Shown here: positions 19,923-62,569 of the stretch, in pieces
How positions within the stretch are numbered: the first letter of the stretch is position 1
How the letters are laid out: the number at the start of each line of letters is the position of its first letter
Source: Candidatus Uhrbacteria bacterium
Lineage (GTDB): Bacteria > Patescibacteriota > Patescibacteriia > UBA9934
Assembly (NCBI GenBank): GCA_003518105.1
Contig: DOZH01000005.1
Location: forward strand, 40,513-104,512
Length of the DNA stretch: 64,000 bases
Direction of reading: 5' to 3'
Position numbers and translations under genes: made by a program
The notes under the pieces: model-generated
What the model was told of the DNA's origin: nothing
Database searches by the model: none
Seen by the model: only the letters and a program-made list of their open reading frames with translations

Positions 19923-20288
19923 TTAAATCTCTTGCGTAAGCGTCTTCTTACAAGCAATACAGGAAGTAGAAGCTGGACGTGCTAGTAAACGTTGAATATC
20001 AATTTCATGTTGGCAATACTTACACTTGCCGTAAGTGCCAGCTTCGATAGCCTTTTGGGCCGAGCGAATGTCCTTTAAGCCAGCTTCAAGTTCACTCTCC
20101 AGGGACAAGTTATCGCTAAACTCGGCAACTTCAGCCGCGTTTTCATCCTCGCTTTCCCCATGATTAGGAAAGTCCGTGGCCACAGCACCATCTACGCCAC
20201 GATGTGTGATCTTATTAATCTCAGCCTCGAGCTTTCCCTGTTCATCCTGCAGGGCTTGAGTAAGCTGAGCTAAAAGTGTCTTATCCAT
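19923..20288 (-). CDS. DksA/TraR-family C4 zinc-finger protein
   Basis: C-terminal CKYCQHEIDIQRLLARPASTSCIACK after a coiled-coil N-terminus. Confidence 0.75.
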   Translation of the reverse strand: MDKTLLAQLTQALQDEQGKLEAEINKITHRGVDGAVATDFPNHGESEDENAAEVAEFSDNLSLESELEAGLKDIRSAQKAIEAGTYGKCKYCQHEIDIQRLLARPASTSCIACKKTLTQEI

Positions 20289-20888
20289 ACAAGAAAAATC
20301 AGGTATCTGTTAAGTGCTAGCCACTATAGCAAAATCTAGGAAAAAGGGAAATCAAGGCTAAAAATACTCAAATTTAGTAAAAGAAAAGAGGGAAATAAGC
20401 GAGAAAATTGTTGAGGCGCGAGGCCTAAGGAAAGATAGAAATTAATCTACGATGATATCCTGGCTCAACAGTTTGGCTTATGTCCCTCAGACGAAGGGCG
20501 TAGGATGGACACCGGCTCTGGTGCTGGGTTTCCAGGTCATATCTTTCGTTTGGGAAAGGCATCACCGGGCAACGCAGCCACAGATCGGCGTCGACAGTCA
20601 GACGCTTTGACGTTCTACTCTACCCCGATAGGGTTACCTGGCGTGCCGAACGCATTCAAGACGCGAGCCCAGTCGACCAATAGTATGAGAGTAAAGTAGT
20701 GAGGTATCCCCCGAAGCTGAATTGTGGGGGCTTCGGAGGATTTCCCCTATGTCAGCCGTACGATGCTTCGCACGGAGCTTAGAGGTTTTGTGGAAAGAAC
20801 AAGTGAAGAGTTCACATTTATATTATAGTTCCCTGAACACCTATTGTAAACAGACTATAAGCCCTGCAAAATATAGAAAAACTCTATT

Positions 20889-20960
20889 TGTGGATAACTT
20901 TCCGAACTAATTCTGTGTAGGGCTGTGGATAACTTGTGGGGATAACGGCACTTATCCCCC
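20889..20960. promoter_or_regulatory. Secondary DnaA-box cluster
   Basis: TGTGGATAA at 20889-20897 and 20924-20932. TGTGGGGATAA at 20935-20945, facing TTATCCCCC at 20952-20960. Confidence 0.5.
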
Positions 20961-20972
20961 TCGCCCACATTA

Positions 20973-22271
20973 TTACCAGCAAAGTCTGGTCTGATTGTTA
21001 TCTATAGCCACTTCGCTAAAGTTTTTTAAGAATAATGAAACCGCACGATTGTTGTTCAGGAGTGACATTGGCGCTTGCTCGGTAATTAGCGATGTAGCGA
21101 ACCAAGTATGCGCATTTCCGAGACAAGTCGAGGCGGGCTTAGCTCCACTTTCCAGTGAAATCTCGCGATTAGCTATCGTCATTAAACTCGGCGTCTTAGC
21201 GATCCGTAGCGTTTTACCTGTATTATTGCTTAAAGTTATAAAAGTGTAAGTTTCCTCAGCTTTAATCTCAGTTGTAATATTTGCTGGGTCACTTCGCAGC
21301 TCGTTATAAACAGAGCCATCCTCAGTTGTCCACGCTAGCGTAGCCAAACTAACTCTATTCATAATGTCTTTACCCAGGCTCGCTGCTTCGTCCACTGTCA
21401 TGTCACCAGGTGCCAAACTTAAATAGTAGCCGAGCCCTTCCGCGTCTTCGGTTAGCAGAATCGAGCCACCATTCGTCAGTAGCATGGTTAAAGCCCGACT
21501 ATCAGCTGGAATTGTCAGCAACGTCGCAACGACGCTCGGCAACTGCAGAGAGTTAGCCGGAATAGTTAAATTGGCCAAAACCTTAACGTCTGCCTTGACC
21601 ATCGGCATTGTCGCGTCATCGACCGCCACATCCGTACCTCGGATCATTAAGCCTTTAGCGTTCAAGTGTAACGATTCACGCACTGCCTGCTCGCCATACG
21701 TTACCACCTCACCCTGAAAAAATGGCGACAAGGCTCGTAACGTCACGTGAGCTCCTGTATCAATGATCTCCTCGCCAGTCCTCGATATCACCGTTGTACG
21801 ACCTTGAATGCTAGCTACATAGCCAAAGCCTGCCAAGCGCTCGCTCGCTTCTACGCTCAGTTTAGTATCAACAACGTAACTAATTAAGCCGTCGTTGCTA
21901 ATATCGAAGGTCACTTCCCTTTTGCTTTCAGCGATTATTTCACCGAGCGTGACCGGCGCTCCTGTCAGTATCGCTAAGCCATGCAAGTGCTCAGTTATCA
22001 GCCGCTTATTCTTCGGCGTCACAAGTAAATGCACGCTCATCACCGTATCTTTCGGTTGATACCGCAGAGTCGGCGATACTACGTACTGCAACCGCCAAGC
22101 TACCACCGCCAGTACCAAGCCCAAGCCGAGCGCACTATAAAGGGCAACAACCCGAGCGTAATCACGCCGGGTTGTTATTTGTCCTTCCAAAGGAATATTG
22201 AGCGCGCCGGTCACAGTTTTAGCTCTTAGGAGCTGCAGTAGGTGCTGGACGTTCTGGGTAGACGTTACCAT
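20973..22271 (-). CDS. Hypothetical membrane-anchored protein
   Basis: 432-aa ORF with one N-terminal hydrophobic segment (VVALYSALGLGLVLAVVAW). Overlaps the pnp 3' end by about 50 nt, so the start may lie further downstream. Confidence 0.55.
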   Translation of the reverse strand: MVTSTQNVQHLLQLLRAKTVTGALNIPLEGQITTRRDYARVVALYSALGLGLVLAVVAWRLQYVVSPTLRYQPKDTVMSVHLLVTPKNKRLITEHLHGLAILTGAPVTLGEIIAESKREVTFDISNDGLISYVVDTKLSVEASERLAGFGYVASIQGRTTVISRTGEEIIDTGAHVTLRALSPFFQGEVVTYGEQAVRESLHLNAKGLMIRGTDVAVDDATMPMVKADVKVLANLTIPANSLQLPSVVATLLTIPADSRALTMLLTNGGSILLTEDAEGLGYYLSLAPGDMTVDEAASLGKDIMNRVSLATLAWTTEDGSVYNELRSDPANITTEIKAEETYTFITLSNNTGKTLRIAKTPSLMTIANREISLESGAKPASTCLGNAHTWFATSLITEQAPMSLLNNNRAVSLFLKNFSEVAIDNNQTRLCW

Positions 22272-28168: not shown

Positions 28169-29389
28169 ATGAAAAAACCTCACATTGTAATTGTCGGCGG
28201 CGGGTTCGGCGGGCTAGAGGTCGCCTGGGGCCTGCGTGGCCAAGTCAAACAAGGAAAAATCGCCGTCACGCTCATCAACATCACCAACTATTTTCTCTTT
28301 ACTCCCCTCTTGCACGAAGTCGCAACTGGCGGTCTCAGTGCCGCTAGCGTTGCCGAGCCTCTCCGTGAAGTCTTCGCCCACACCGGCCTCAATATAATCC
28401 AAGGCGAGGTCACCAAGGTCGACGCCGACAAGAAGGCCGTCTTCCTCGGCCATCACACCATTCCCTACGACGTCCTGGTTCTCTCAACTGGTGCCACCAC
28501 CAACTACTTCAATACTCCAGGCGCCGCGGAGTTTGCCCTCCCCCTCAAAACTCTCGCCGACGCCACTGCCATCCGCGCTCGCATCATCGACGCCTTCGAA
28601 ACCGCCTCACTCGTCACTACCGCTGCCGAACGCAAGGAACTCCTCTCCTTCGTCGTGGTCGGTGCTGGTGCCACCGGTGTCGAGCTCGCCGCCGAACTCG
28701 CCGAATTTGCTTTTCACATTGCCCGCCGCTATTTTTGCCAAAAAAATAGCTGTATTCTGCATAACGAAGTTTCTGTCACGCTCGTTAGTGCTGGTCCCGA
28801 ACTCCTCGCCCAGTTCTCCCCGCCAACTCGTAAGGCGGCTGAAGCTCGTTTAAAAAAGCTCGGCGTCAAACTCCGCTTGGGCGTGCAAGTCGGCGAGGTC
28901 GACGCAACTGGCGTCAACATGAACGACGGTTGGCGCATCCCCTCTGGCCTCACTATCTGGACCGCTGGCGTTAAAGCAGTCCTTCCATTGATTGTTGATA
29001 GCTCTGGCACCAAGGTAGCCAAAGCTCAGCTTTGGTCGCAAGCAAAAAAGCCAGCTGAGCTGGTCATCCTCGGCGACGCCGCTGCTGGCCTCCCCATGCT
29101 GGCCCAAGTCGCTGTTGCTCAAGGCCGTTCCGTGGCCAATAATATTGTTCTCCTCCTGGCTAGCCGTCCTCTCCTCCCATTTGTCTATCACTCCCGCGGC
29201 TCCTTCGTCTCCCTCGGTCAATGGTTCGCCGCTGGCACCATCGGTCGTATAAATTTGAGCGGTCGCCTCACCTGGTGGCTTTGGCGCACCGTCTATCTCT
29301 TCAAATTTGCCAGCCACAAAAAGCGCCTCCGCATTGTCTTCGAGTGGACGCTGAACCTCTTCTATCCCCGTGACATCACGCGCCTCTAA
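28169..29389 (+). CDS. Type II NADH dehydrogenase-like FAD-dependent oxidoreductase
   Basis: N-terminal dinucleotide fold IVIVGGGFGGLEVA and a second fold VVVGAGATGVELAAELA. Confidence 0.8.
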   Translation: MKKPHIVIVGGGFGGLEVAWGLRGQVKQGKIAVTLINITNYFLFTPLLHEVATGGLSAASVAEPLREVFAHTGLNIIQGEVTKVDADKKAVFLGHHTIPYDVLVLSTGATTNYFNTPGAAEFALPLKTLADATAIRARIIDAFETASLVTTAAERKELLSFVVVGAGATGVELAAELAEFAFHIARRYFCQKNSCILHNEVSVTLVSAGPELLAQFSPPTRKAAEARLKKLGVKLRLGVQVGEVDATGVNMNDGWRIPSGLTIWTAGVKAVLPLIVDSSGTKVAKAQLWSQAKKPAELVILGDAAAGLPMLAQVAVAQGRSVANNIVLLLASRPLLPFVYHSRGSFVSLGQWFAAGTIGRINLSGRLTWWLWRTVYLFKFASHKKRLRIVFEWTLNLFYPRDITRL

Positions 29390-48795: not shown

Positions 48796-50007
48796 TTAGG
48801 TGTTACGTTCCTCTTGGTTCATTCTGAACATTTCATTTTCAACCCGTAGATAGCAATTAGACCATATACTTTTGTCTTTACCGAGTTGGTTGGGATTACC
48901 AATTTTTTTTGCCTGTTCACCTATCATAACCACTAATTCATTTTTTAACCGATCAAAGACCACCTGTGGCTCGATCTTCCAGGTCGCCTTACCATCCTTG
49001 ATTTCAACAAGCGGACGAAACGATGCCAATATTGGATAGATGAAGCCACTCGTAATTCTATATTTAGAAGTTTTACCAGTGAATGGCAATTCTTCGACTG
49101 ACATTCTGCCTGCTACGGGAGTGACACCCCGAAGAAGACCAAACTTTCCTCCACTTGCATTATACTCATCTGGAAGTGCAAGATAGATAGCATCATGTAG
49201 ATCAAGAATTTCCGGCAGTAATGGAGCTAGACGATCAAGACGCTCTTTCTTGTTTGGATTATCTTTATCAATAGCGAAGTGTTCAACTGTAGCCGAAAGA
49301 GATGAGTAGGCAATGATAGGGTGCGAATTTCCTTTATAGGACTCTGTATCAAAGCATAATAGGTAGGAGAGAATATCGCGAATGTCAATATCTTTGGGCG
49401 TTCCGTCTTGAAACTCCTCATACTGCTTATAGAAGATACGATCTTTATAATCCTTATCTTTTAGCTTTTCTTTGATAACTTCATAGGCTCCAAGCAGATC
49501 CTGAAAACCTTGTTCTGCCACGGGGGTAGAGTTATTACGAGCTTCAATAATCGGTGCTACTTCTTCCCGTGACTTGAATCCTTCAAGGAACTCAATTTTA
49601 ACATAAGCCTGGATTTCGTTCTGCTCTTCTGTTGTCCGAGAATCAACGTATCTACGAATAGCTCGGTTAGTGTGACCGCCATCAGCAAGGCCACTCATCA
49701 TATTATCGCTAAACTCAACCTCTACCAGACCTGTTTTATTATCATGTGTCACACTTTCTGCAAGTACGAGCAAGCCACGGTTTTTAAAGAAAAAACTTTC
49801 TGGCTCTTTACTGAGTGAATCACTGATCTCCCTTGGCACAGTCTTACTCATTTTTGGGTCACGAACATTTAACTTACGCCAGTCTTCAAGTTCCGCAGGT
49901 ACATCTTTAATATTAACAACAGCGGTATAGAGTCGATGGTCTGTAGAATCGTATGGTGTATCTTGACGGCGGAATGAGAAGGATTTAAATCTAAGAATCG
50001 TGGACAT
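48796..50007 (-). CDS. AIPR-like (abortive-infection type) protein, tentative
   Basis: AT-rich 403-aa ORF. NVRDPKMSKTVPREISDSL...FFFKNRGLLVLAESV...LADGGHTNRAI resembles the AIPR/DGQHR-type N-terminal pattern, judged from memory only. Confidence 0.4.
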   Translation of the reverse strand: MSTILRFKSFSFRRQDTPYDSTDHRLYTAVVNIKDVPAELEDWRKLNVRDPKMSKTVPREISDSLSKEPESFFFKNRGLLVLAESVTHDNKTGLVEVEFSDNMMSGLADGGHTNRAIRRYVDSRTTEEQNEIQAYVKIEFLEGFKSREEVAPIIEARNNSTPVAEQGFQDLLGAYEVIKEKLKDKDYKDRIFYKQYEEFQDGTPKDIDIRDILSYLLCFDTESYKGNSHPIIAYSSLSATVEHFAIDKDNPNKKERLDRLAPLLPEILDLHDAIYLALPDEYNASGGKFGLLRGVTPVAGRMSVEELPFTGKTSKYRITSGFIYPILASFRPLVEIKDGKATWKIEPQVVFDRLKNELVVMIGEQAKKIGNPNQLGKDKSIWSNCYLRVENEMFRMNQEERNT

Positions 50008-51403: not shown

Positions 51404-51477
51404 ATTGACCCAAAGCTTAAAAATGACTATACTCGCCCTGTCCTCGAGCTTCTAGTATAGCACGACACATATATTCT

Positions 51478-51551
51478 GACCTCGTAGCTCAACTGGATAG
51501 AGCAGGTCCGTCCTAAGGACAAGGTTACAGGTTCAACTCCTGTCGAGGTCA
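51478..51551 (+). tRNA. tRNA-Arg (CCT)
   Basis: Acceptor GACCTCG/CGAGGTC, D arm GCTC-AACTGGATA-GAGC, anticodon loop GTCCTAA, T arm ACAGG-TTCAACT-CCTGT. CCA not encoded. Confidence 0.85.
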
Positions 51552-51566
51552 AGAGAAATTAAAACA

Positions 51567-51590
51567 TTTGTCTAGGCCACTGTAGACAAA
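51567..51590. promoter_or_regulatory. Inverted-repeat operator candidate TTTGTCTA-N8-TAGACAAA (site 1)
   Basis: Perfect 8-bp arms with an 8-bp spacer. An identical architecture is at 52574-52597. Confidence 0.45.
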
Positions 51591-51635
51591 TAAGTTACAG
51601 CACGTGTTACAACTATAGTTACAAGATAAAATTCA

Positions 51636-51708
51636 GGGCCTGTGGCTCAGTTGGTAGAGCGCTGCATTCGCATTGCAGAGGTCAGCGGTTCGAATCCGCT
51701 CAGGTCCA
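51636..51708 (+). tRNA. tRNA-Ala (CGC)
   Basis: Acceptor GGGCCTG/CAGGTCC with G3:U70, anticodon arm CTGCA-TTCGCAT-TGCAG, T arm AGCGG-TTCGAAT-CCGCT. Confidence 0.9.
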
Positions 51709-51807
51709 CCCGAGCTCAGCTCGGTTGTCGGTATGCGCCCAAAGCTCAGCTTTGGTAATTCGACAACTAGCTTGCTGCTGAGCGAAGGGTGAGTCAGCTC
51801 AGCTGAC
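51709..51807. repeat. AGCTSAGCT hairpin repeat cluster (non-coding copy of the element found inside two surface-protein genes)
   Basis: CGAGC-tca-GCTCG, CCAAAGC-tca-GCTTTGG, GTCAGC-tca-GCTGAC. The reverse complement of 51709-51765 aligns with 60085-60135 and 55408-55460. Confidence 0.65.
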
Positions 51808-51855
51808 CACCACTCGATCATTCAACCATGATCAATATTGGTTGACTCAGTCAGA

Positions 51856-51883
51856 TATAGTAGATTATATATAATCTACTATA
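51856..51883. repeat. Perfect 28-bp palindrome
   Basis: TATAGTAGATTATATATAATCTACTATA. Confidence 0.7.
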
Positions 51884-51906
51884 ATAACGAGGTGAATTCG
51901 GCAAAC

Positions 51907-51941
51907 AAAATCAGTCACTTCTGTGGCTGATTTTGTTTTTT
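51907..51941 (+). terminator. Intrinsic terminator about 200 nt downstream of tRNA-Ala
   Basis: AAAATCAGTCAC-ttct-GTGGCTGATTTT followed by GTTTTTT. Confidence 0.6.
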
Positions 51942-52013
51942 GCGCTTTTATTGGGCTTTATTGAAAACGGCACGTGTAACAGGCTTATTTGAGAAAAAAG
52001 GAAGCTCATTTTC

Positions 52014-52042
52014 TGTTGATAACCTGTGGATTGTGTGGATAA
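52014..52042. promoter_or_regulatory. DnaA-box cluster (third locus, part a)
   Basis: TGTTGATAA (52014-52022), TGTGGATTG (52025-52033), perfect TGTGGATAA (52034-52042). Confidence 0.45.
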
Positions 52043-52441
52043 CTCAGCAATATGGAAACTGAAAAATCATATAATCATATTATTACAGGGGTAAGTTGGA
52101 AATTTAGCTATCCATCACATAAAGAATACATCTGTGCATAACTAGTTAAATTAATCGCAATCCCAGCTTATCAATCACTATTGAAAACTCTCAAGAGTAG
52201 AATATTGTTAGGTTAGTATTTGGCTAAAATTAGCCTAAAAATAGTTTATAACTTAACAGAAGATTGCCCTAGCCGCAGTAGACAATTCGAATATAACTTT
52301 TGTATTCATCAACGCAAAGTATCGATAAAAAATCTACTTCTCTGGCTCTAAAAAGCTATAAGAAATCTATAAATAAAATTAGTCCTTCAGTCATCTTATC
52401 GTAGTAATTTAGCGTCACCAACTCGTTTAAACGAACACAGT

Positions 52442-52487
52442 TTATCCACCGTCAAAAATCGCAAAATTACACCAAAAGTTATCCACA
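52442..52487. promoter_or_regulatory. DnaA-box pair (third locus, part b)
   Basis: TTATCCACC (52442-52450) and perfect TTATCCACA (52479-52487). Confidence 0.45.
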
Positions 52488-52573
52488 GTTAGGGGAAGAT
52501 GAACTCGAAATTACGCAAAAAATCACTTTAATTTTAGAGATCATAAGCCAAAAAAACACCAAAATAACCTTTT

Positions 52574-52597
52574 TTTGTCTACGCTAGAGTAGACAAA
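52574..52597. promoter_or_regulatory. Inverted-repeat operator candidate TTTGTCTA-N8-TAGACAAA (site 2)
   Basis: Perfect arms, about 120 nt upstream of the surface operon start. A half-site GTAGACAA is at 52278-52285. Confidence 0.45.
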
Positions 52598-52719
52598 TTC
52601 ATGAAACATTGTGAAACTTACAAAATTTAATTTAAGTATTCAGATAATTTAAAAGTTAGTCACCGCAGAGTCATCAGGCAAGTGGTTCAGTAGGAGATTC
52701 CGCGGTATACTGTAACCAT

Positions 52720-53634
52720 ATGCAGCGACGATGGAGCCTAATTCTAGCAGTCGTGTCACTCTTGTTGTTGGCCTTGAACGTCCCTCAAGTTTTGGCCGTC
52801 ATGTCCTCCACTAACTACTCCATCGGCTGGGACTCGGTTGGCGTCGGCGGGTCTGACACCTCGTCGAGCGCCACTTATAAACTTCGCGACAACTTCGGCT
52901 TCGTGCAGGGGGCCTCATCCTCGGCTAGTTACCAGTTTAACTCCGGCTACCGCGCCGGCGTCTATGATCGGGTAGCTGACTTCTCGGTCAACTCCCAACT
53001 CCGTTCAAGCGCCGTTGCCGCCACCTCAGCTACAGCTACCACAGTCACCGTCACTTCAACCTCAGGTTTCTCGGTTGGGGACTACATAGCCGTCATCCAG
53101 GACGAAGGTTCTGGCCAAATCTCAGAAATGGGAAAAATAACCTCTATCGCCAGTCCAATTATTACGGTCGACGCATTTAACGGGGCTGGGCCGTCAATTG
53201 ACGGTAGTAATGACCTTGTCTACCGTCTCTCAGGTAGCGCACTGGACCTCGGTACTCTCACCGCCTCGGCCGTGTCCACCTCCATCATCGGTTGGGACGT
53301 CACCGCCGACATCGCTCAGGGTTACAGTGTCTATATCATGGAAGACCACGACCTCCGTAATGCGGACAATATTGCCATCACCGACGTTGCTGACGGCACA
53401 GTCAGTGCTGGCATTGGCGAGTACGGTGCCAAGTCGTCGGACACCACCCTCGCCTCATCCACTTTCGACACCGCCGATACGGCCATCACCTCATCCCTCC
53501 AGCAAGTCGCCAGCCGCAGTGATAACAGTTTTAGCACACGCGACTTCCTCACCCTCAAAGTCGCTCCAGCTACAGCGCAGGCCTCTGGTACCTACAGCCA
53601 AACCGTGAGCCTTATTTATGTTGGCGATTACTAG
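52720..53634 (+). CDS. Secreted protein (signal peptide), first gene of the surface operon
   Basis: N-terminal RRWSLILAVVSLLLLALNVPQVLA. Ser/Thr/Ala-rich. No enzyme motif. Confidence 0.6.
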   Translation: MQRRWSLILAVVSLLLLALNVPQVLAVMSSTNYSIGWDSVGVGGSDTSSSATYKLRDNFGFVQGASSSASYQFNSGYRAGVYDRVADFSVNSQLRSSAVAATSATATTVTVTSTSGFSVGDYIAVIQDEGSGQISEMGKITSIASPIITVDAFNGAGPSIDGSNDLVYRLSGSALDLGTLTASAVSTSIIGWDVTADIAQGYSVYIMEDHDLRNADNIAITDVADGTVSAGIGEYGAKSSDTTLASSTFDTADTAITSSLQQVASRSDNSFSTRDFLTLKVAPATAQASGTYSQTVSLIYVGDY

Positions 53635-54532
53635 CCTCCGCTCGTTTGCGTTAGCCCTCGTTGGCCTTTGGTTTTTTTTATTACCAAGCTCCGCCTCGGC
53701 CTTATCGTTTACGCCTACCGCTACAGATCTCACGCTCATGCCAGGCGAAACTCTCACTAAAAATTTCACCCTTACTAACGATTCAACCGTCACTAAAAAT
53801 TATCTAACAGCCCTCAACCTTGTTCACTTCGACGCCACTACGAACGAACCTATCTTTGACGCCTGGCCTGCCTCCCTCAACTCATCGGTTATTATCGACA
53901 CTAACGACTTCACTCTCGATGCCAACGCTCAAAAAAATATCACTGTCACCGTCAGCCTACCCGCCAACACCACCGCCAGTTCACTCGTACTCGGCCTCAT
54001 CATCACCGAAGTGGCACCAGCGACCGTAGTTCAGGTCACGCCCGGCGTCAGCAGCCTCATCTTTGTCACCATCGGCCAACCCTCAGTTTTACCAGTTCTG
54101 ACAGGTTTTTCCGCCTCGTCATTTATTCGCAGCTCTCTGCCTATCGACTTCACCGGCAACATTATCAACAACGGCGATCGCACTTTGCAACCACTCGGCA
54201 CCGTTACGGTGTATAATGCGTTCAGTAAACGTCTCGCTACTTTTGACATCAACCCTACAGTGCGCCGCATTCCCACCAATCAGAATCGCGATTTCACCGT
54301 TACTTGGGGTTCGGCCCGGACCACCGGTAATTTCTTTCAAGAGTTATGGCGCGAAGTAACCAATTTTAAAGTTGGCTTCTTCACGGCAGAACTGTTGGTA
54401 GCACCATTTCCCGGCGCTGACGCCACCATCAGCCAAACCACGCACGTTATCGTGCTACCTTGGCGAGTGTTGCTAGTCGTCCTCGGGTTTGGTGCAATCA
54501 TCATCGTCTCTGTCCGCCGTCACAAGCGGTAA
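53618..54532 (+). CDS. Cell-surface protein with a signal peptide and a C-terminal membrane anchor
   Basis: N-terminal hydrophobic leader. C-terminal VLLVVLGFGAIIIVSV followed by RRHKR. 17-nt overlap with the upstream gene. Confidence 0.6.
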   Translation: MLAITSLRSFALALVGLWFFLLPSSASALSFTPTATDLTLMPGETLTKNFTLTNDSTVTKNYLTALNLVHFDATTNEPIFDAWPASLNSSVIIDTNDFTLDANAQKNITVTVSLPANTTASSLVLGLIITEVAPATVVQVTPGVSSLIFVTIGQPSVLPVLTGFSASSFIRSSLPIDFTGNIINNGDRTLQPLGTVTVYNAFSKRLATFDINPTVRRIPTNQNRDFTVTWGSARTTGNFFQELWREVTNFKVGFFTAELLVAPFPGADATISQTTHVIVLPWRVLLVVLGFGAIIIVSVRRHKR

Positions 54533-54541
54533 AAACCTCGT

Positions 54542-57082
54542 GTGAGGCAGTTTTTTTTAACCTTGCGTGCAACTTTTTTTATCATACTCGGAGGAGTGTG
54601 CATTTTGCATTCAGCCAATATTACCCAAGCCGCCACCGTGACAGATCTCTACGATCAGCCTTCGTCGCTCGTCATTTCCGCCGCCTCAAATCATAAATTT
54701 GTCTTCGTTCCAGCTAGCAATATCAGTGGCGGCAGCACCTTAACTTTCACCTTTGCCTCACAATTTACTACCACCAGTATCACCGAAGACGACGTCGACA
54801 TCGCCGACGATGGCGTAGACCTCACCACGGCCGTCAACTGCGCTGGTGCCGACCAAGCCTCAATCGCCATGGCCGGTAACATTTTAACCATCACCATTTG
54901 TGCTGGCAACGGTGGCGACATTGCACTTGGAAGTTCGGTTACTGTCGAGGTTGGCACCAACGCCTCGGCCTCAGGTAGCGGCACAAATCAAATCACTAAC
55001 CCTAGTACTGCCGCCACCTATTACATCACCTTAGGTGGTACCTTCGGCGACTCCGGTTCGATTCCATTGCCCTTTGTTACCAGCAATAGCGGCGGCGTTT
55101 CTGGTACCTTCACGGCTCCCAGTAGTGATAACGGTAATAATGGTTGCGGCGCTTGCGGTGGCGATCCAACCCCAACTCCCACACCCGACCCAACTCCAGT
55201 TCCAGATATTCCACCCGTCGAACCCACCCCAGAACCAACCCCAACACCTGAACCTACACCCACTCCGACCCCAGAACCAATCCCTACACCAACTCCCACC
55301 CCAGCGCCCGACTCAACCCCAACTCCAACCTCAGGCTCAACGCCTTCCTCGGGTTCGACGCCAACAACGACTCCCACCGAACCAACAACCCCACCTACTG
55401 AACCAATCACCGAGCCAAGTCAAAGTCCAGATTTGACCGCAAATCCACCAATCGAGCTCAGCTCGACCACCGCCACTCTTATCGTCGACGGCGGCCTTAC
55501 GCTCACCCCCGACGGAACTACTTTCTCTACTCTCGCTGGCACCCCCTCCACTATCAGCGTCACCCTAGATGAATCTACTCCAGTCACGGAAGCTCGTGTC
55601 ATCATCGACCATGTTGCCTACGTTTTAGTAGCCAACAATAGCTCGTACACAGCCAACATCGTGCTACCATCCGCCGACACCGCCCTCACCATTCAAGCCG
55701 ACCATACTGACGGTACTACGTCGACCTCATCCTACACCCTCAACGTCCAGGGCGGCGGCATGGTTTACGAAGTCGTCAATAAATCATGGGTGCCAGTTAG
55801 CGGCGCTATGGTTACGGTCTATCAAACTAGCGGCGGCTCGCATACAGCCTGGAATGCCTCAGCCTACGACTCCATCAATCCAGTCATCGTTGGCAGTAGT
55901 GGCGCCTATTCTTTCTACGTTCCGAACGGCACTTATCAAATCACCGCCAGTCACCTCGGTTTTCAAGAGGGAACTAGTCCCACAATCACAGTTACTAATC
56001 ACATCCTTACTACCTCGATCGAACTTAAACGAACAACGATTGCGCCAATTTCTCCTGCACCAACCGGTGCTATAAATATCGCAGTCGCCGCGGTCACCAC
56101 GCAGCTCGACGTCATTCGTGATATTCCGGCAGTCCAAGTTGCCACCTCAATTGCTACCCCCGCCACGGCCGTACTTGCCGCTACCTCAGCCGTTGCCTTG
56201 GCCTCCTCCTTCAGCCTTCTTCCATACCTCCAATACCTCTTCACCGCACCCTTCCTCTTCTTTGCTCGCCGTAAGCGTAAAGCTTTCGGTACCGTCTATA
56301 ATGCCGCCACCAAACTTCCAGTGGACCTCGCTATCATTCGTCTCTTTTCAAGTCCCGAGCATAAACTAATCCGCAGTGTCGTCACCAACCAAAAAGGTGA
56401 GTATTTGTTATCCGTCGCCGCCGGCACTTACACTATTGAAGTTCTAAAGCAAAATTTCTCCTTCCCAAGTGCCATCCTACAAGGCAAAAAAGACGATGGT
56501 GCATTCCTCGACGTCTACACTGGCCAAATCATCACCGTTTCTGATCAAGAAGCTACCATTGCCGCTAACATTCCGCTCGATCCTGCTGGCGCTGCTTCAC
56601 TCGCCACGCCACGTCATGCCGCCCTCATTCGCCTATTCCGCGTTGCCCAACAGGTCGTAGCTATTGCCGGCATAGTTCTGTCTATTGTTGTGCTCATCAT
56701 CGCGCCAACAATATTCACCACCATCATGTGCGTGGTGCAAATAATCGTCTATCTTTTAGTCCGTCGTTTGGCTCGTGTCCGCAAACCAAAAGGTTGGGGC
56801 ATTGTTTACGACGAGGTGACTAAGCAGCCTGTGAGTAACACCGTCGTCAGATTGTTCGAGCCCGTGTATAATAAACTCATCGAAACGGTTTTAACGGATC
56901 GCTTCGGTCGCTACGCTTTTCTTGTTGGGCCAAGTCAGTATTACGTCAGCTATAGTAAACCTGGTTACACCGAGAAATTGGTGCGACCAATTGACTTTAG
57001 CACCCGCACCGAGCCAACCGCTCTAGCGCTTGATGTACCACTAGCCGAAGCCGCAGAAGTTGTAGTCAAAACGGAGGTATGA
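54542..57082 (+). CDS. Large surface protein: signal peptide, Pro/Thr linker, CarboxypepD_reg-like repeats, several TM segments
   Basis: [30 protein letters not shown] linker. Two repeats of type GxVYxxxTKxPVxxxxxRLF. Hydrophobic segments near residues 560-590 and 700-740. Confidence 0.65.
55408..55460 (+). repeat. AGCTSAGCT double-hairpin element, in-frame copy inside the 846-aa gene
   Basis: AGTCAAAGTCCAGATTTGACCGCAAATCCACCAATCGAGCTCAGCTCGACC, encoding [17 protein letters not shown]. Confidence 0.6.
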
Positions 57083-60000
57083 TGACTCGTGCCGCATTTC
57101 ATCTGCGACGATTCTTAGCTAGCTCCATGCTGGCCATCTTGTTGTTTTCAGGCCTCTTCGGTTTTACACTTTCTCAAGTCAACGCCGCCTCAGCCCCAAA
57201 CATTCTCAACTATCAAGGCCGCCTATTGAACGCGAACGGCGTACCGATCAGTGCTGCCTCGGCTAGCATGACCTTCGCGCTCTACACCGTGCTCGCCACT
57301 GGCAGCCCCGGTGACGCCGAATGTGTCTGGACTAATAGTAGCAGCAGTGGTTTTTCAGCGACGACTCGTACAGTAACCTTAACCGATGGCCTCTTTAGCG
57401 AAAACTTGGGTGACACCGCCGCTGGCACTCCCTATGCGGCTATCACTGATTCAATTTTTTCTAATAATGCCAATCTCTACCTAGAAATTACCATCAACGG
57501 TGAAATGCTCACTCCTCGCAAACAAATCGTCTCCGCTCCGTACGCCATGAACTCGGACACCCTCGACGGCTTCGACAGCACGCAAGCCGGCGGTACCACG
57601 GCCGCCACTCTCGTCCTCAACAGTTCTGGCAACCTCCAGCTCACCGGTAATCCAAGCGGTTCCACTATCAGCAGCGGTTCGCTTTATATTAATCCAGCTA
57701 CTGGCGACGTGGCTGCCAACGACGTTCTCTTTGGCATTGCTGTCACCGGTACCACAAAATTTTCTCTCGACGCCGAGGGCGACACTATCGCTACGGGCGA
57801 CCTCGCGGTTAATGGGGGGGACTTCACAACTAGTGCTACCACCTTCAATTTGCTCACCACCACCGCTACCACGCTCAGCTTCGCCTCAGCCGCCACTACC
57901 CTCAATATCAACAACGCAGCTGGCGTCTCCACCAAAACCATCAACATTGGTGGCACTTCTGCCGACAGTCCCAATGCCATCAACATCGCCACCGAAGGCA
58001 CCCAAGCCGACACCATCATCATCGGCAACAATAACGCGTCGACTCTGATGACCTTAACTGGTGGTAATGACTGGTCAATCGACAACGCTGGTATTATTAC
58101 GACAACTGGCAATATTACAACAGCTGGCGACGTCGCTGTTAACGGCGGTGGAATCACCTCGACAGACACTCTTGATATTTCCTCATCAAGCAGCAATATT
58201 TCATTGTCAGCAAGCGGCAGCGGATCGGGTATGGTCTACGTTACAGCGGGCGACAATTTTGCTGTCGGCGGTATCACAGACGCTGTTCCTTTCTCAGTAA
58301 CCGAAGCCACCAATTCGGTGCGCATCGGTGACGGAGCAAGTGATAGCAATGATCCAGCGATCAGATTCTTTGCTTCCGATGCTTCAGACGACGGCACCCT
58401 CAAATATGCAGACACTGATGCTTTCGAATTCTTTGGTGGCGACCTCGTCCATACTGCTATCGCTACTACAACCTTCGGTCAGCATTTTGTTAATGACTCA
58501 ATCACGAGCGGGGTCGGCATGTCTATCAGCCGTGCTGATGGCGTGACAGACTTTACAGGCGCCTTGCTCAGTATTGCTCAGAATGATACCAGTACTACCA
58601 GCACGGGCAATGCTTTAGTAGTTGTCCAAGACGCTAATAATACTAGTTGCGTCGCCGGTCCTTGCGCTAAAGGCCTTTTCATTGCTCAAGCCCACACTAC
58701 AGCCCACATCGCTGACGACCCAGGGGGGAGCGCTCTTGCTATCGACATAGGTGAAGCAGGCAGTACCGACGACGCCATTGTTCTTCGAGCTGGTCCTGCT
58801 ACAACTTTCCGTGTGACTACCGAAGGTAATGCCTACGCCGACGGTGCCTTTACTGGTGGTGGCGCTGACTTGGCTGAGTATTTTCCCACCTCCAACACTA
58901 GTCTCGGCAGTGGTCAAATAGTTTGCCAAGATACAGTGAATAAAAATCAAGTTACGCAGTGTATTAACAGTCAGTACGCTCCGATCGGTGTAGTTTCAGA
59001 CAATCCTGCCTTTATCGGTAATCTCATAGGTGATGCTTCTGAAGATCTGCGCCACAACCCTAATTATAGTCTCGTCGGTTTGCTCGGTCAGATCGACACC
59101 TTGGTCGACGACAGCAGGGGAGTCATCAACATCGGTGACCCCATCACGGCCTCGTCAGCTACCAGCGGCTACGGCGCCAAAGCTATCGGCGCTGGTCGCA
59201 TTGTCGGTTACGCCCTCGAACCTCTCTCATCCACCACCGGCACTATCCGCGTGCTCGTCCAACCACAATGGTTCGGCGGTACAGTAGCGGCTCCAGCCCC
59301 TGCCACCTCGGCCGAAGTTGTCGCTGCTAACCCAGTTGTTATCGCCGATAATTCCGTTTCTGGCTTAACCAACACCTCTGTTCTCGACGTCGACGGTTCG
59401 CTCAACATGAACGGCGGTCGTATTCTATCCGTCTCATCATTGCAGGGTCTCGGTGGTAACTGGCACCTGGCCGAGAACGGTGACTTCACTACCCACGGTC
59501 AATTCATTGGCTTGGTCAATGGCTACAGCGGCGCCCCAGTCGAGACTTATGCCACGATGAGTCGCCAGCATCTCATTCAACTCTCCGGCACTGCTACCCT
59601 CCAAAACGGCATCGCTCACGTTCTCTTCGTAGACGTCGACCCTCAGTTCGCCGACGTTATCAGTAACACCTCACCTTACCGCGTCATCGCCACGCCTTCT
59701 GGTCTCACTGGCCAAATCTACATCAGCGAACGCACTCTCACTGGCTTCACCATCCGCGACATCAATAACTCAAACGGCGTCGAGGTTGACTGGTTAGTTA
59801 TGGCCTATAATAAAGACTTCTCCCCAGACTCGGTCATCACTGTGCCTGTTGTTGAGCCAGTTATCGGTAATGCTCCACCCGCCTCTGCTCCATCAGTCGA
59901 GCCATCTGCTGACACCACTGCTCCCCTCACCGAACCAGCTATCATCGATCCTCAAGTTGATGCTTTAGTAGTCGCCGAAGACCCGGTTATTACCACCGAA

Positions 60001-60207
60001 CCGGTCATTACGCCCGACCCAGTTGCCGACGCTCCCGTTATTGCCGAGCCAGTCTCGACTCCTGACCCAGCCGTTACCGAGTCAAGCCAAAGCTCAGCTT
60101 TGGCCGCAAATCCAACAAGCGAGCTGAGCTCGCCCGAGCCTGTAGCCGAAGCTGCACCAGTAGTCGAGCCATCACCCGCAAACCCTCCTCCAGCTATGGG
60201 GGAGTAG
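57079..60207 (+). CDS. Giant secreted protein (1042 aa), fibre/adhesin-like
   Basis: Signal peptide (LASSMLAILLFSGLFGFTLSQVNA), long Thr/Ser/Gly/Ala-rich repeats, ADLAEYFP...GDPITAS C-terminal domain, Pro-rich tail. ATGA overlap with the upstream gene. Confidence 0.65.
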   Translation: MMTRAAFHLRRFLASSMLAILLFSGLFGFTLSQVNAASAPNILNYQGRLLNANGVPISAASASMTFALYTVLATGSPGDAECVWTNSSSSGFSATTRTVTLTDGLFSENLGDTAAGTPYAAITDSIFSNNANLYLEITINGEMLTPRKQIVSAPYAMNSDTLDGFDSTQAGGTTAATLVLNSSGNLQLTGNPSGSTISSGSLYINPATGDVAANDVLFGIAVTGTTKFSLDAEGDTIATGDLAVNGGDFTTSATTFNLLTTTATTLSFASAATTLNINNAAGVSTKTINIGGTSADSPNAINIATEGTQADTIIIGNNNASTLMTLTGGNDWSIDNAGIITTTGNITTAGDVAVNGGGITSTDTLDISSSSSNISLSASGSGSGMVYVTAGDNFAVGGITDAVPFSVTEATNSVRIGDGASDSNDPAIRFFASDASDDGTLKYADTDAFEFFGGDLVHTAIATTTFGQHFVNDSITSGVGMSISRADGVTDFTGALLSIAQNDTSTTSTGNALVVVQDANNTSCVAGPCAKGLFIAQAHTTAHIADDPGGSALAIDIGEAGSTDDAIVLRAGPATTFRVTTEGNAYADGAFTGGGADLAEYFPTSNTSLGSGQIVCQDTVNKNQVTQCINSQYAPIGVVSDNPAFIGNLIGDASEDLRHNPNYSLVGLLGQIDTLVDDSRGVINIGDPITASSATSGYGAKAIGAGRIVGYALEPLSSTTGTIRVLVQPQWFGGTVAAPAPATSAEVVAANPVVIADNSVSGLTNTSVLDVDGSLNMNGGRILSVSSLQGLGGNWHLAENGDFTTHGQFIGLVNGYSGAPVETYATMSRQHLIQLSGTATLQNGIAHVLFVDVDPQFADVISNTSPYRVIATPSGLTGQIYISERTLTGFTIRDINNSNGVEVDWLVMAYNKDFSPDSVITVPVVEPVIGNAPPASAPSVEPSADTTAPLTEPAIIDPQVDALVVAEDPVITTEPVITPDPVADAPVIAEPVSTPDPAVTESSQSSALAANPTSELSSPEPVAEAAPVVEPSPANPPPAMGE
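60085..60135 (+). repeat. AGCTSAGCT double-hairpin element, in-frame copy inside the 1042-aa gene
   Basis: GCCAAAGCTCAGCTTTGGCCGCAAATCCAACAAGCGAGCTGAGCTCGCC, encoding SQSSALAANPTSELSSP. Confidence 0.6.
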
Positions 60208-60225
60208 GAGGGGGCTTTAACTTAT
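60185..60225 (+). repeat. PPAMGE mini-palindromic repeat at the 3' end of the 1042-aa gene
   Basis: CTCCTCCAGCTATGGGGGAGTAGGAGGGGGCTTTAACTTAT. It contains the gene's TAG stop and ends at the next gene's ATG. Confidence 0.75.
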
Positions 60226-62569
60226 GAAATTAAATTTTTTACGAGTGAGCCACCTCTGGACGTCAGTCGCGTTCCTAATTCTGGCCGTCGCCATCCCGTT
60301 ACTCTATCTCCCATTTACCATCGAACCCCACGAACTCATCAAGCAAACCCTCCTCGTTCTTATCATCGTCCTCTCGAGCCTCACCTTGGTCGCCACCATC
60401 ATCCAAACTCGCACTCTCACTCTCCGTCGTGACTGGAGTTATTTATTGTTCGCCCTCCTCATCGTTTCTCTGCTCATCGCCCCCGGTCTCCGCGAGTCAC
60501 CTTTCTTGTCGTTAATGGGCCAAGCTGGGCAGGAATACACCAGCGTTCTCAGCTTTGTCATGTACGGCCTGCTCTTCTTCCTCGGTGCCGAATCACTCAA
60601 AACACCCGGTCAAATTAGCCGTCTTCTCTCAGCCCTCCTCATTGGCAGCGCCCTAATTTCCATACTCGCCATCCCAGCCTTCTTCGGTGCCACCTTCCCT
60701 CCACCCCTCATCGGCGGCGCCAACACTTTCGCCGTTTATCTCATTACGCTGATGACCCTCGGCCTTGGTCTGTGGTTGTTGGATCGCGCCGACGCCCCTC
60801 ACCCTATACTGCCGAGCGGTTTCTTCGGCCTCATCGTCCGCGCCTCTATTCTCATCACGAGTATAATTTCTTTCATCACTCTCCTCGCCCTCGACTACAG
60901 CCCCCTCTGGTTCTTGTCGATGATCGGCCTTGGCGCCCTCTTCCTCATCGCCTTCATTAAGCCAACTGAGTTCAAGTATCACGGTCGCTTTGTCCTACCC
61001 ATGCTTTTCTTCGGCTTAAGCCTCATCTTTATCTTCTTACCGAGCCCTATCAGCAGTCCCTTCGCCCCAGAAATAGCACCCACTCAATCCGCTAGTCTCG
61101 CCATCGCCACTAGCACTCTTAACGAGCATCTCCTCTTCGGCTCCGGCGCCGGCACTTACGGCTTCGATTACGCCGCCCATTCCTCACCATCGCTCAACTC
61201 TACAGCCTATTGGGACACCACTTTTTCCTCAGCTAATTCCTATTTCTTAACACTTCTCCCAACCGTCGGCCTCATTGGCACAGGTCTTTATCTGCTCATC
61301 TGCTTAATGATTTTGGCTGGTGCGATCATCGTACTCTTCCACGCTCGCCACATTGCTAATCGAACCATCATTATCGCGCCAATAACTGCCTGGCTCGTCC
61401 TCTTTAGCGCTCAGTTCTTAGTTTCTTCAAACATCACTCTCTCCGTCACGTTCTGGCTCCTTTCCGCCATTCTCGCCTCACTCTCAGTCAAAAAACTTTA
61501 CACCGTGTCCTTCGACCGGTCACCCCGCACCGGTCTCGCCGCTATTTTTCTTTCCGTCTGCGTCATCCTCGGCCTCTTCACCGCTCTGTTCGTCACCGCC
61601 TCCCGTTACCTTGCCGAGTTATCTTTTCAACGCGCTATCACTCTCAGTCAAACTGGTGGCAATCCTGATGACGTCATTGCGACTCTGGATCGCGCCGCCA
61701 TTCTTAACCGCTGGAACGACGTTTACTATCGCAATCTCGCCCACATTCTTCTGCAAAAAACCGCCATCGCCTTAAAACAACCAGACGTCGACCAAACCTA
61801 CATTCAGCAGCTCATCGGGTCGAGCGTCAATGCCGCCAAGCGTGCTACCGAACTTGCTCCAAGCAACGTCGCCAACTGGGTCATTCTCGGCGACACTTAC
61901 AAAGAAATCGCTCCAGCCATTCCAGAATCTGTTATCTTTGAACTCGCCGCTTACCAAAAAGCCCAAGTTCTCGCCCCCAGTAACCCACGCTATCTAGTCG
62001 ACGTGGCTCAGGCCCACCTCGCAGTTGCGGATGGTGCAGCAATCGTCATGGCCGGCTCTGACAAGGACCTCGCCGCCCAAGCCACTATCAATCGCGCCTC
62101 AGCCCTCGACTCTGCCCTAACTGCCTTACTCTCCGCCCAAAAACTTAAGCCAGATTACGCTCCAGCCGGTTACTACCTGGCTGGTGTCTACGAACGCCAA
62201 GGCAAATTAGCCGACGCCATTGCTGGCCTCGAAGCCATTCGCAATTCTAACCTAAACGACGTCGGAGTCGGCGTCCAGCTCGCCTTACTTTATCTCAAAC
62301 AAGGCAAAAATACTCTCGCTCAAGATGAACTAACTCGCGTGCTCGACATCAGTTCCGACTATGCGGACGCCCACTGGTATTTGGCCACCATTTTTGAGAA
62401 CCAAGGCGACCTTGAGCGCGCCATCATTCAGGTCGAAGCCGTAGCTGCCGCTAACCCAGACAATGAACTAGTAAAAACTCGTCTCTCCCGCCTCCGTCAA
62501 GGCCTGGCCGATAAACTTCTGCCACCGCCACTTGAGACTCCGACTACCGACGCCACGACTTCTCCATAA
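60224..62569 (+). CDS. Polytopic membrane protein (O-antigen ligase/Wzy-like core) with a C-terminal TPR region
   Basis: At least 10 hydrophobic segments. LLFGSGAGTYGFDY loop. C-terminal TPR-like repeats (YYLAGVYERQGKLADAI, HWYLATIFENQGDLERAI). Confidence 0.55.
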   Translation: MKLNFLRVSHLWTSVAFLILAVAIPLLYLPFTIEPHELIKQTLLVLIIVLSSLTLVATIIQTRTLTLRRDWSYLLFALLIVSLLIAPGLRESPFLSLMGQAGQEYTSVLSFVMYGLLFFLGAESLKTPGQISRLLSALLIGSALISILAIPAFFGATFPPPLIGGANTFAVYLITLMTLGLGLWLLDRADAPHPILPSGFFGLIVRASILITSIISFITLLALDYSPLWFLSMIGLGALFLIAFIKPTEFKYHGRFVLPMLFFGLSLIFIFLPSPISSPFAPEIAPTQSASLAIATSTLNEHLLFGSGAGTYGFDYAAHSSPSLNSTAYWDTTFSSANSYFLTLLPTVGLIGTGLYLLICLMILAGAIIVLFHARHIANRTIIIAPITAWLVLFSAQFLVSSNITLSVTFWLLSAILASLSVKKLYTVSFDRSPRTGLAAIFLSVCVILGLFTALFVTASRYLAELSFQRAITLSQTGGNPDDVIATLDRAAILNRWNDVYYRNLAHILLQKTAIALKQPDVDQTYIQQLIGSSVNAAKRATELAPSNVANWVILGDTYKEIAPAIPESVIFELAAYQKAQVLAPSNPRYLVDVAQAHLAVADGAAIVMAGSDKDLAAQATINRASALDSALTALLSAQKLKPDYAPAGYYLAGVYERQGKLADAIAGLEAIRNSNLNDVGVGVQLALLYLKQGKNTLAQDELTRVLDISSDYADAHWYLATIFENQGDLERAIIQVEAVAAANPDNELVKTRLSRLRQGLADKLLPPPLETPTTDATTSP

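Follow-up and report, generated by a model that had tools for sequence, protein, structure and literature searches.

Here, we focus on an AT-rich non-coding tract of about 1.1 kb in a 64-kb stretch of DNA (the window) from a Candidatus Uhrbacteria bacterium, a member of the Patescibacteria or candidate phyla radiation (CPR). The tract extends from a pair of tRNA genes, themselves preceded by a RmuC gene, to an operon for surface proteins whose first product is pilin-like, and it carries two copies of a 24-bp palindrome, termed site 1 and site 2. Read from the sequence, both palindromes are probably operators of a regulator of the HTH_17 (helix-turn-helix, HTH) type, with site 2 in the control region of the pilin-like operon, site 1 a clade-specific extra copy within a tRNA transcription unit, and DnaA (joined by ParB in relatives) acting on the same region. 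Pili are central to the host attachment of these episymbionts, most of which are not cultivable, and to our knowledge almost nothing is known about gene regulation in CPR bacteria. Operator pairs in intergenic control regions are familiar as a kind; the novelty lies in which regulator family this is and how widely it occurs, together with the conserved link of its site to a pilus-like operon and the interleaving of this site with DnaA boxes and parS.

The analysis offers a testable regulon, consisting of a regulator family, a 24-bp operator and a rule linking residue 24 of the protein to half-site base 6. Its conserved targets include at least the promoter of the regulator gene itself, next to an extracytoplasmic function (ECF) sigma factor operon, and the region upstream of the pilin-like operon. 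DnaA boxes are present in the shared control region, as are perfect parS sites in relatives, and this raises the possibility that surface structures and the chromosome cycle influence one another. Should none of this hold at the functional level, what remains is an ordinary intergenic control region that is well conserved.

The palindromes and their candidate regulator

The two palindromes and the conserved blocks associated with them are listed here; relatives are denoted by the numbers of their loci (L).

51567-51590: operator site 1, TTTGTCTA GGCCACTG TAGACAAA; arms perfect, spacer off-consensus
52574-52597: operator site 2, TTTGTCTA CGCTAGAG TAGACAAA; spacer equal to the consensus
52278-52308: operator half-site GTAGACAA (52278-52285) followed by a conserved block, ATAACTTTTGTATTCA, which parallels TAATTTAAGTATTCA after site 2
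52601-52642: conserved block, ATGAAACAttGTGAAACT ... TAATTTAAGTATTCA, including the right parS half-site GTGAAAC; near-invariant in the window, L114 and L060

The first-pass annotation of the window had reported twin palindromes with identical arms and spacing, and both are exact at these positions, mutually inverted and 1007 bp apart. The other features that it listed in the tract were recovered as well, displaced by 1-2 nt at most, and its description of the tract as AT-rich with no open reading frame (ORF) of note is accurate: 52001-53000 has a GC content of 0.39, compared with about 0.5 overall in the window, and the longest ORF, which overlaps tRNA-Ala, has 62 aa. Site 1 is flanked by tRNA-Arg(CCT) and tRNA-Ala(CGC), and site 2 lies 122 nt from the ATG at 52720, much as the proposed distance of about 120 nt before the surface operon. 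The spacers of the two sites (GGCCACTG and CGCTAGAG) differ at 4 of 8 positions; that of site 2 is a common variant among the operators of HTH genes, identical in several autoregulatory ones, whereas that of site 1 is not.

The motif, whose possible abundance in AT-rich DNA had been raised as an objection, is far from commonplace. A weight matrix derived solely from HTH-gene operators, and independent of the window sites, yields only three outliers in 64 kb, namely site 2 (40.5 bits), a site at 21325-21348 (29.0 bits) and site 1 (28.5 bits); the next-best unrelated position in the window scores 9.1 bits and the maximum over 20 shuffles is 13.5 bits. Counted as palindrome matches with three or fewer mismatches, there are three in the window against 0.23 in shuffles, and across 20 kb of contig flanks no match has fewer than four mismatches. 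A supposed third copy at 52263-52286 was rejected as a half-site only (full-site score -2.1 bits), as was a relationship to the Paenibacillus XylR operator, which has TAGACAAA in common but differs in architecture and is unrelated.

The candidate regulator is encoded beside the motif in other genomes. An exact-motif scan with one genome per species listed 119 loci, a set whose counts are neither complete nor a random sample. Among the matches listed, at least 22 loci belong to Patescibacteria, mostly Uhrbacteria, and 15 of these have the motif directly before a gene for an HTH_17 protein of ~98 aa, which is divergent from genes for an ECF sigma factor and a DUF5667 membrane protein. Conversely, 80 metagenome loci were picked by alignment of the regulator protein alone. 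The motif (three or fewer mismatches) is found within 260 nt upstream in 70 of them, comprising five exact copies and 15, 28 and 22 copies with one, two and three mismatches, respectively, and the remaining 367,478 positions of the 80 loci contain 0, 1 and 3 matches at up to one, two and three mismatches, respectively. A divergent ECF sigma gene is present in 71 of the 80 loci, and the full operator consensus that they define is TTTGTCTACaCTAGtGTAGACAAA.

At these genes the operator occupies a fixed position in the promoter. Of 80 distinct operators, 56 are preceded by TTGACA, with one mismatch allowed, at a distance of exactly 11 nt, a register that places TAC(A/T/G)CT, operator positions 7-12, as the -10 element after a 17-nt spacer (TTGACA-17-TACnCT). 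An operator over its own -10 at a fixed register has the geometry of an autorepressor site, and from this geometry we infer that the HTH_17 gene would repress itself. Protein and DNA also covary: where residue 24, which stands just before the invariant T-I/V-R-R-A, is Arg or Lys, half-site base 6 is C (141 of 142 half-sites), while Gln goes with A (8 of 10), and Ile or Met with A or T (8 of 8). Contacts of Arg with G, Gln with A and hydrophobic residues with T form the classical, textbook pattern. The occurrence of the site before the regulator's own gene across distant genomes, taken together with the covariation, is consistent with an autoregulated factor and its operator.

Two regulator proteins from relatives (L046 and L095) match Pfam HTH_17 (PF12728) with 39.1 bits against a cut-off of 27 and TIGR01764, the ‘excisionase family’, with 36.8 bits against 28.8. 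The AF2 (AlphaFold2) model is a confident winged HTH over residues 9-57, followed by C-terminal helices that are short and of low confidence, and the closest solved folds are those of Pukovnik Xis, BldC, the RacA DNA-binding domain, GlnR and MerR proteins. A C-terminal extension of ~40 aa is conserved (GIGQ[FY]V..WKIKN.LYSPNP), and a sequence search of the PDB found no relatives for the regulator, this extension included, or for the pilin-like protein. The family amounts to 3,909 protein clusters, every one labelled hypothetical, HTH-domain or excisionase-family, and as far as seen it is confined to Patescibacteria. The literature contained nothing relevant on the motif or on a CPR regulator of this kind.

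Comparison with known systems reveals both similarities and differences. BldC, Xis, TorI and AlpA are likewise small, essentially MerR-type winged HTH proteins and, like Streptomyces BldC, the regulator appears to be a transcription regulator and not a recombination directionality factor. BldC and Xis bind head-to-tail direct repeats, whereas the site here is a 24-bp perfect palindrome, and the regulator differs further in its conserved C-terminal extension and its paired ECF sigma gene; the BldC family model NF033787 gives 13.1 bits against a cut-off of 77. MerR proteins proper have a long C-terminal coiled-coil dimerisation helix and an operator in a promoter spacer of 19-20 bp, whereas the regulator stays below cut-off for Pfam MerR and MerR_1, has short C-terminal helices and is associated with a 17-bp spacer. 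Autorepressors of the LexA or TetR type resemble it in having a palindromic operator over their own sigma-70-type -10 and further copies at other operons. Here, fold and motif are different, and the site at the pilin-like operon lies far upstream (about -133 from the start), so that simple promoter occlusion is not applicable there.

In the proposed mechanism, the HTH_17 protein (~98 aa, with a MerR-like winged helix) would bind as a dimer to the palindrome TTTGTCTAC-nCTAGn-GTAGACAAA, with Arg or Lys at residue 24 contacting the G:C pair at half-site position 6. At the gene that encodes it, the protein would cover the -10 and spacer of the TTGACA-17-TACnCT promoter and thereby repress itself, while occupancy of site 2 would set the expression of the pilus operon. 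Site 1 might either loop to site 2 across the 1007 bp, raising local occupancy, or block transcription before tRNA-Ala. A broader scheme, in which the HTH protein, the 24-bp palindrome and the ECF sigma/anti-sigma pair form a CPR-conserved module that is the master switch of Pam-like pili, its operators deliberately interleaved with DnaA boxes and often parS so that host-attachment pili are coupled to the state of replication and segregation, is speculative and seems to us rather doubtful.

Conservation of the tract and proposed control of the pilin-like operon

Conservation in related genomes, on which the first-pass annotation had made its reading depend, is evident: the tract is an orthologous control region between RmuC and the surface operon, found in one orientation in three near-identical contigs and more than ten relatives (more than 12 genomes). 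L114 (Uhrbacteria LJ_bin-3226) and L060 are syntenic with the window, having RmuC, tRNA-Arg, site 1, tRNA-Ala, the tract, site 2, two genes for proteins of ~304 aa and larger surface proteins in this order. The three-way alignment of these sequences has a mean column identity of 72%, and identity islands in the diverging tract are formed by the two operators, the DnaA boxes and the blocks on either side of site 2. The islands include ATGAAACAnnGTGAAACT and TAATTTAAGTATTCA downstream of site 2, and the half-site at 52278 together with ATAAyTTTTGTATTCA.

A test of the operon that was blind to the motif relied on homologues of the first operon protein (48-88% identity), whose loci were inspected. 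The arrangement of RmuC, gap and operon is kept in 7 of 7 loci picked by this homology. In each of the six loci with DNA, an operator-like match lies 146-225 nt upstream of the pilin-like gene and is the best of the ~9-kb locus, save in L205, where it ranks second to an exact equivalent of site 1 between the two tRNAs. Site 1 itself is kept in L114, L060 (with one change) and L205 while its flanks diverge, and is limited to these closest relatives; in distant relatives its place is taken by parS, hairpins or nothing. One metagenome-assembled genome (MAG), PFJC01, has the exact motif both at the HTH promoter (L047) and in the RmuC/tRNA tract (L067).

The first-pass annotation had proposed that one dimeric regulator controls both the tRNA-proximal transcript and the surface operon. 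Its view of the palindromes as operator-type sites gains from the promoter element of the HTH_17 genes, the covariation of residue 24 and the conservation of site 2, whereas control of a tRNA-proximal transcript finds no such backing, site 1 lying inside the tRNA unit with no promoter of its own and only in the closest relatives. In relatives the operator covers the -10 of the HTH-gene promoter; a sigma-70 promoter scan of the window found nothing passing at site 1 or site 2.

The operon has one plausible promoter, and a further palindrome lies upstream of it.

52683-52722, + strand: candidate promoter TGGTTC-17-TATACT, read from the sequence; the -10 ends 8 nt before the ATG at 52720
52222-52235: palindrome GGCTAAAATTAGCC; GCTAAwATTAGC is kept in all three aligned genomes

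The promoter scan missed TGGTTC-17-TATACT because its -35 is weak. The short distance from the -10 to the ATG suggests a leaderless start, and the window, L114 and L060 share an unchanged CGCGGTATACTG immediately ahead of the ATG. The palindrome GCTAAnnTTAGC is found immediately upstream of the -35 of the pilin promoter in L049, L067, L082, L209 and L210, and about 500 nt upstream in the clade of the window; it is probably the site of another regulator. Between a DnaA box and site 2, at 52462-52564, CAAAATTACACCAAAA occurs three times at 43-44-nt spacing (about four helical turns). These copies are rich in A-tracts and partly kept in L114 and L060, and the triplet may be a bent-DNA or UP-like region.

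Two further promoters at site 2 were considered. On the minus strand, TTCACA-N12-operator has a geometry like that of the HTH promoters (a gap of 12 in place of 11); a promoter here stays speculative because its TTCACA doubles as the remnant of a parS half-site. An ECF-sigma promoter after site 2 (GTGAAACT-N16-AAGTATTCA) was rejected, the promoters of the sigma genes themselves being GTAAC/GTAATGA-N16-CGAC. Beside the HTH gene, these sigma genes (L123-L202) have a conserved promoter, GTAAC(A/G) or GTAATGA-N16-CGAC(T/A), a few nt before the start codon, which implies autoregulation of the sigma factor and very short leaders.

The operon itself (52720-62569) resembles a Pam-type pilus operon only distantly, judging by profile matches. 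Its first protein matches NCBIfam CPR_pilus_PamT at E = 1.9e-11 (43.8 bits against a cut-off of 240) and Pam_pilin_C with 15.8 bits against 55, both below cut-off. The second has an Fn3-like match and a C-terminal membrane anchor, and CarboxypepD_reg-repeat, fibre-like and TPR proteins follow. With the Pam pilus operon of Ca. Mycosynbacter amalyticus, to whose PamT and Pam_pilin_C the first gene after the tract is weakly matched, the likeness is in outline only. Pam pilins have been described mainly in Saccharimonadia and Microgenomatia, in a study that does not cover their regulation (bioRxiv 10.64898/2026.03.03.709456); the Uhrbacteria-like lineage of the window is outside these classes.

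Several observations weigh against the HTH_17 operator reading. Site 2 is about 110 nt upstream of the one promoter that is plausible for the operon, and neither a classical repressor nor a class I or II activator sits at such a position; the site 1 spacer, for its part, deviates at three inner positions that are among the best conserved. The covariation derives from perhaps 3-5 independent lineages and may be inflated by shared ancestry. The ECF-type pattern GTAAC-N16-CGAC is absent from the tract and has one chance occurrence in the window; its absence from the tract leaves any connection of the operon with the sigma factor unsupported. Finally, tblastn found no regulator gene in the window or in 82 kb of the 148-kb metagenome contig that includes the window (JGI 3300009031, Ga0103682_10000025; L203/L204 flanks), and the presence of the regulator in this genome is extrapolated from relatives.

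DnaA boxes, parS-like sites and alternative readings

DnaA boxes and parS-like half-sites are interleaved with the operators.

52012-52044: DnaA-box block TCTGTTGATAACCTGTGGATTGTGTGGATAACT, 33 nt without a single difference among the window, L114 and L060; 32/33 identical in L205
52442-52487, + strand: DnaA boxes TTATCCACC (52442) and TTATCCACA (52479)
51597-51611: parS-like half-site GCACGTGTTAC, CACGTG-centred; relatives have a perfect parS at this position
51967-51981: second parS-like half-site GCACGTGTAAC, unchanged among the window, L114 and L205; the equivalent position after the terminator holds a perfect parS in L075

Perfect DnaA boxes are present at 52034-52042 (- strand) and 52479-52487 (+ strand), and boxes with one mismatch at 52014, 52133 and 52442. 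Five boxes with at most one mismatch, two of them perfect, lie in 52014-52487, a cluster of the kind found at an oriC. AAAAGTTATCCACAG does not vary among the window, L114 and L060, and in relatives a perfect DnaA box accompanies the operator before the pilin gene at a distance of 36-88 nt; the DnaA boxes of the tract are under strong purifying selection. In 17 of 67 HTH promoters, including those of L145, L148, L154, L190 and L196, a DnaA box (TTATCCACA, at most one mismatch) lies exactly 5 nt past the operator on the gene side (+29), against a background of about 0.05 boxes per 144 nt.

Canonical parS (16-bp TGTTNCACGTGAAACA) has no match within three mismatches in the 64-kb window, where there are only GCACGTGTWAC half-sites. 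Relatives differ in carrying one to four perfect copies of GTTTCACGTGAAAC at homologous positions in this tract, which in the window is dnaA-proximal (~50 kb) and has CACGTG-centred half-sites only. Perfect parS sites number four in the tract of L075 (4828-5507), three in L107 (1469-2178) and one in L112 (2920); in L075 and L112 GTTTCACGTGAAAC lies between both tRNAs, further perfect sites lie at 3264 and 3819 in L207 and at 1365 and 2015 in L210, and in both of these loci a perfect parS abuts the operator. With up to four sites per 700 nt clustered between RmuC/tRNA-Arg and the pilin gene, the tract appears to be the centromere region of these relatives. The parS-like sites of the window are at best decayed or re-specified parS, and DnaA, with ParB in relatives, probably acts on the same control region.

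The dnaA gene lies about 50 kb from the tract, on the minus strand at the left edge of the window, with its start near 1258 and its remainder running off the edge. Beside it are four DnaA boxes (1286-1383), then rpmH (~1515-1650) and rnpA (1740-2126), with dnaN further left. The tract and dnaA are each flanked on either side by a GC skew of about -0.2, with a switch at neither; given that even dnaA shows none, skew cannot place the origin within 82 kb. An oriC at the tract was thus not supported by skew, a weak criterion, nor is the tract adjacent to dnaA or dnaN, the former having a box cluster of its own. Non-coding clusters of consensus boxes away from dnaA are known as datA and DARS in Escherichia coli and as the DnaA-box clusters of Bacillus subtilis, and datA, too, is adjacent to tRNA genes. 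The boxes here differ in being interleaved with the operators of another regulator, upstream of an operon, and because of this position transcriptional control by DnaA is as likely as titration or reactivation.

Three other explanations of the palindromes have to be weighed against the HTH_17 operator reading. They could be operators of another dimeric regulator, with the HTH_17 gene merely one of its targets, as the pilin-like operon would be. Adjacency of site and gene is circumstantial evidence, the 82 kb examined do not contain the HTH gene, and several TrmB-type HTH genes are present in the window and flanks; we nonetheless consider this unlikely, given that base 6 and a residue in the recognition helix of the HTH_17 protein vary together in the classical manner and that a site over the -10 of the HTH gene's promoter in fixed register (56 of 80) is a standard signature of autoregulation. 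A replication-origin or centromere-type locus, at which the palindromes bind a chromosome-organising protein of the RacA type, would account for the fully conserved 33-nt DnaA-box block, the five boxes within 470 nt of AT-rich DNA, the one to four perfect parS sites in relatives (some abutting the operator), the proximity of dnaA, the RacA DNA-binding domain among the closest folds and the DnaA box at +29 in HTH promoters. The missing skew switch counts against it only to a small degree; the lack of canonical parS within three mismatches in the window, the presence of parS at none of the 80 HTH-promoter loci and the location of the operator on a promoter -10, which fits a transcription factor, make it decidedly improbable.

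The first-pass annotation had itself offered the alternative that the two sites delimit a recombination or integration module, in which case they would be recombinase targets of the lox/FRT type or belong to an inverton that switches the surface operon. An 8-bp spacer between inverted arms is indeed reminiscent of loxP and FRT, sites 1 and 2 are inverted relative to each other, and tRNA genes next to a surface operon are a typical setting for islands and phase variation. The arms, however, are 8-9 bp and not 13, and strand exchange between sites 1 and 2 would fail because their spacers are unequal at 4 of 8 positions. Moreover, the tract has one orientation in the three near-identical contigs and more than ten relatives, no recombinase family is found among the called genes within ±10 kb, and the same site is a fixed element of ordinary promoters at thousands of HTH genes; a site-specific module is scarcely credible.

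The tRNA unit and other observations

Upstream of the DnaA boxes lie the following features of the tRNA region.

51405-51433, + strand: sigma-70-type promoter TTGACC-17-TATACT, 10/12 consensus, 44 nt upstream of tRNA-Arg
51477-51552, + strand: tRNA-Arg (CCT), in the RmuC-to-pilin gap of every relative examined
51636-51710, + strand: tRNA-Ala (CGC), from the tRNA calls
51710-51810, + strand: structured tRNA trailer, three AGCTCAGCT-cored hairpins within a longer stem
51856-51883: perfect 28-bp palindrome, 14-nt arms, 100% complementary; lineage-specific
51903-51945: terminator-like hairpin, stem 51903-51938, 16-nt arms, 94% complementary, A-run before and T-run after

The sequence at 51405-51433 is likely to be the promoter of the tRNA-Arg/tRNA-Ala unit, and the two tRNAs, the folded trailer and the T-run hairpin probably belong to a single transcription unit, within which site 1 is also transcribed. 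The RNA of 51705-51950 has a predicted folding energy of -102.5 kcal/mol (z = -9.3 against shuffles). The trailer is kept in L114, with loop changes, and partly in L205, with one compensatory pair, and it lies between both tRNAs in L067; its hairpins are not present in L060. The 28-bp palindrome has no counterpart in L114 or L060, and L205 has an imperfect inverted repeat only. In the stem of the terminator-like hairpin there are compensatory changes, from A-T to G-C in L114 and from G-T to A-T in L205. A consensus/simple terminator scan called no terminators, probably because the A-run and T-run are absorbed into the stem; with an A-run before it and a T-run after it, the hairpin could act in both directions. 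Rfam finds only the two tRNAs in 50-54 kb at E <= 1 and nothing further at gathering level in the whole window.

Two-hairpin units (CCAAAGCTCAGCTTTGG ... GCGAGCTGAGCTCGC) akin to the hairpins of the tRNA-Ala trailer recur within ORFs at 29018-29064, 55452-55466 and 60086-60135. In two proteins of the pilus operon they code for similar linker peptides (..SQS.AL.ANP..ELSS..), and units are also present in L114.

The strong operator-like site at 21325-21348, GTTGTCCACGCTAGCGTAGCCAAA, has the consensus spacer and lies within an ORF of 432 aa (20973-22271, - strand), where it codes for LATLAWTT. A DksA/TraR-type gene (19923-20288) lies about 1 kb downstream of it, and L045 has an exact operator upstream of a DksA-type gene too. 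The 680 nt at 20289-20972 contain no ORF longer than 64 aa, have a GC skew near zero and include three DnaA-box-like 9-mers at 20889-20945. No Rfam match at E <= 1 and no transfer-messenger RNA was found in this region, which may be an unrecognised RNA gene or another control region.

Outside the Patescibacteria, the motif occurs in other contexts. In MAGs of Legionellales, Coxiellaceae, Thiotrichales and other proteobacteria, TTTGTCTA-N8-TAGACAAA forms head-to-tail tandem arrays (TAGACAAATTTGTCTA with variable 8-mers between), which are iteron- or array-like and unrelated to the CPR context (L015, L018, L044, L066, L076, L117). In the Bacillus cereus group and other Bacillales it stands right after a terminator-like hairpin (..CTGGAT TTTGTCTA N8 TAGACAAA GCAGC..; L014, L022, L027, L041, L042, L054, L065, L071, L096, L101, L111, L120 and the Sporolactobacillus loci) and is presumably the operator of an unrelated regulator.

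Upstream of the tract, an AIPR (abortive-infection) gene of low GC content (0.41-0.43) lies at 48796-50007, between Maf and RmuC. Its slot holds nothing in L060, a deaminase in L205 and NUDIX genes in L206 and the P0194 locus, and it looks variable, like a defence island.

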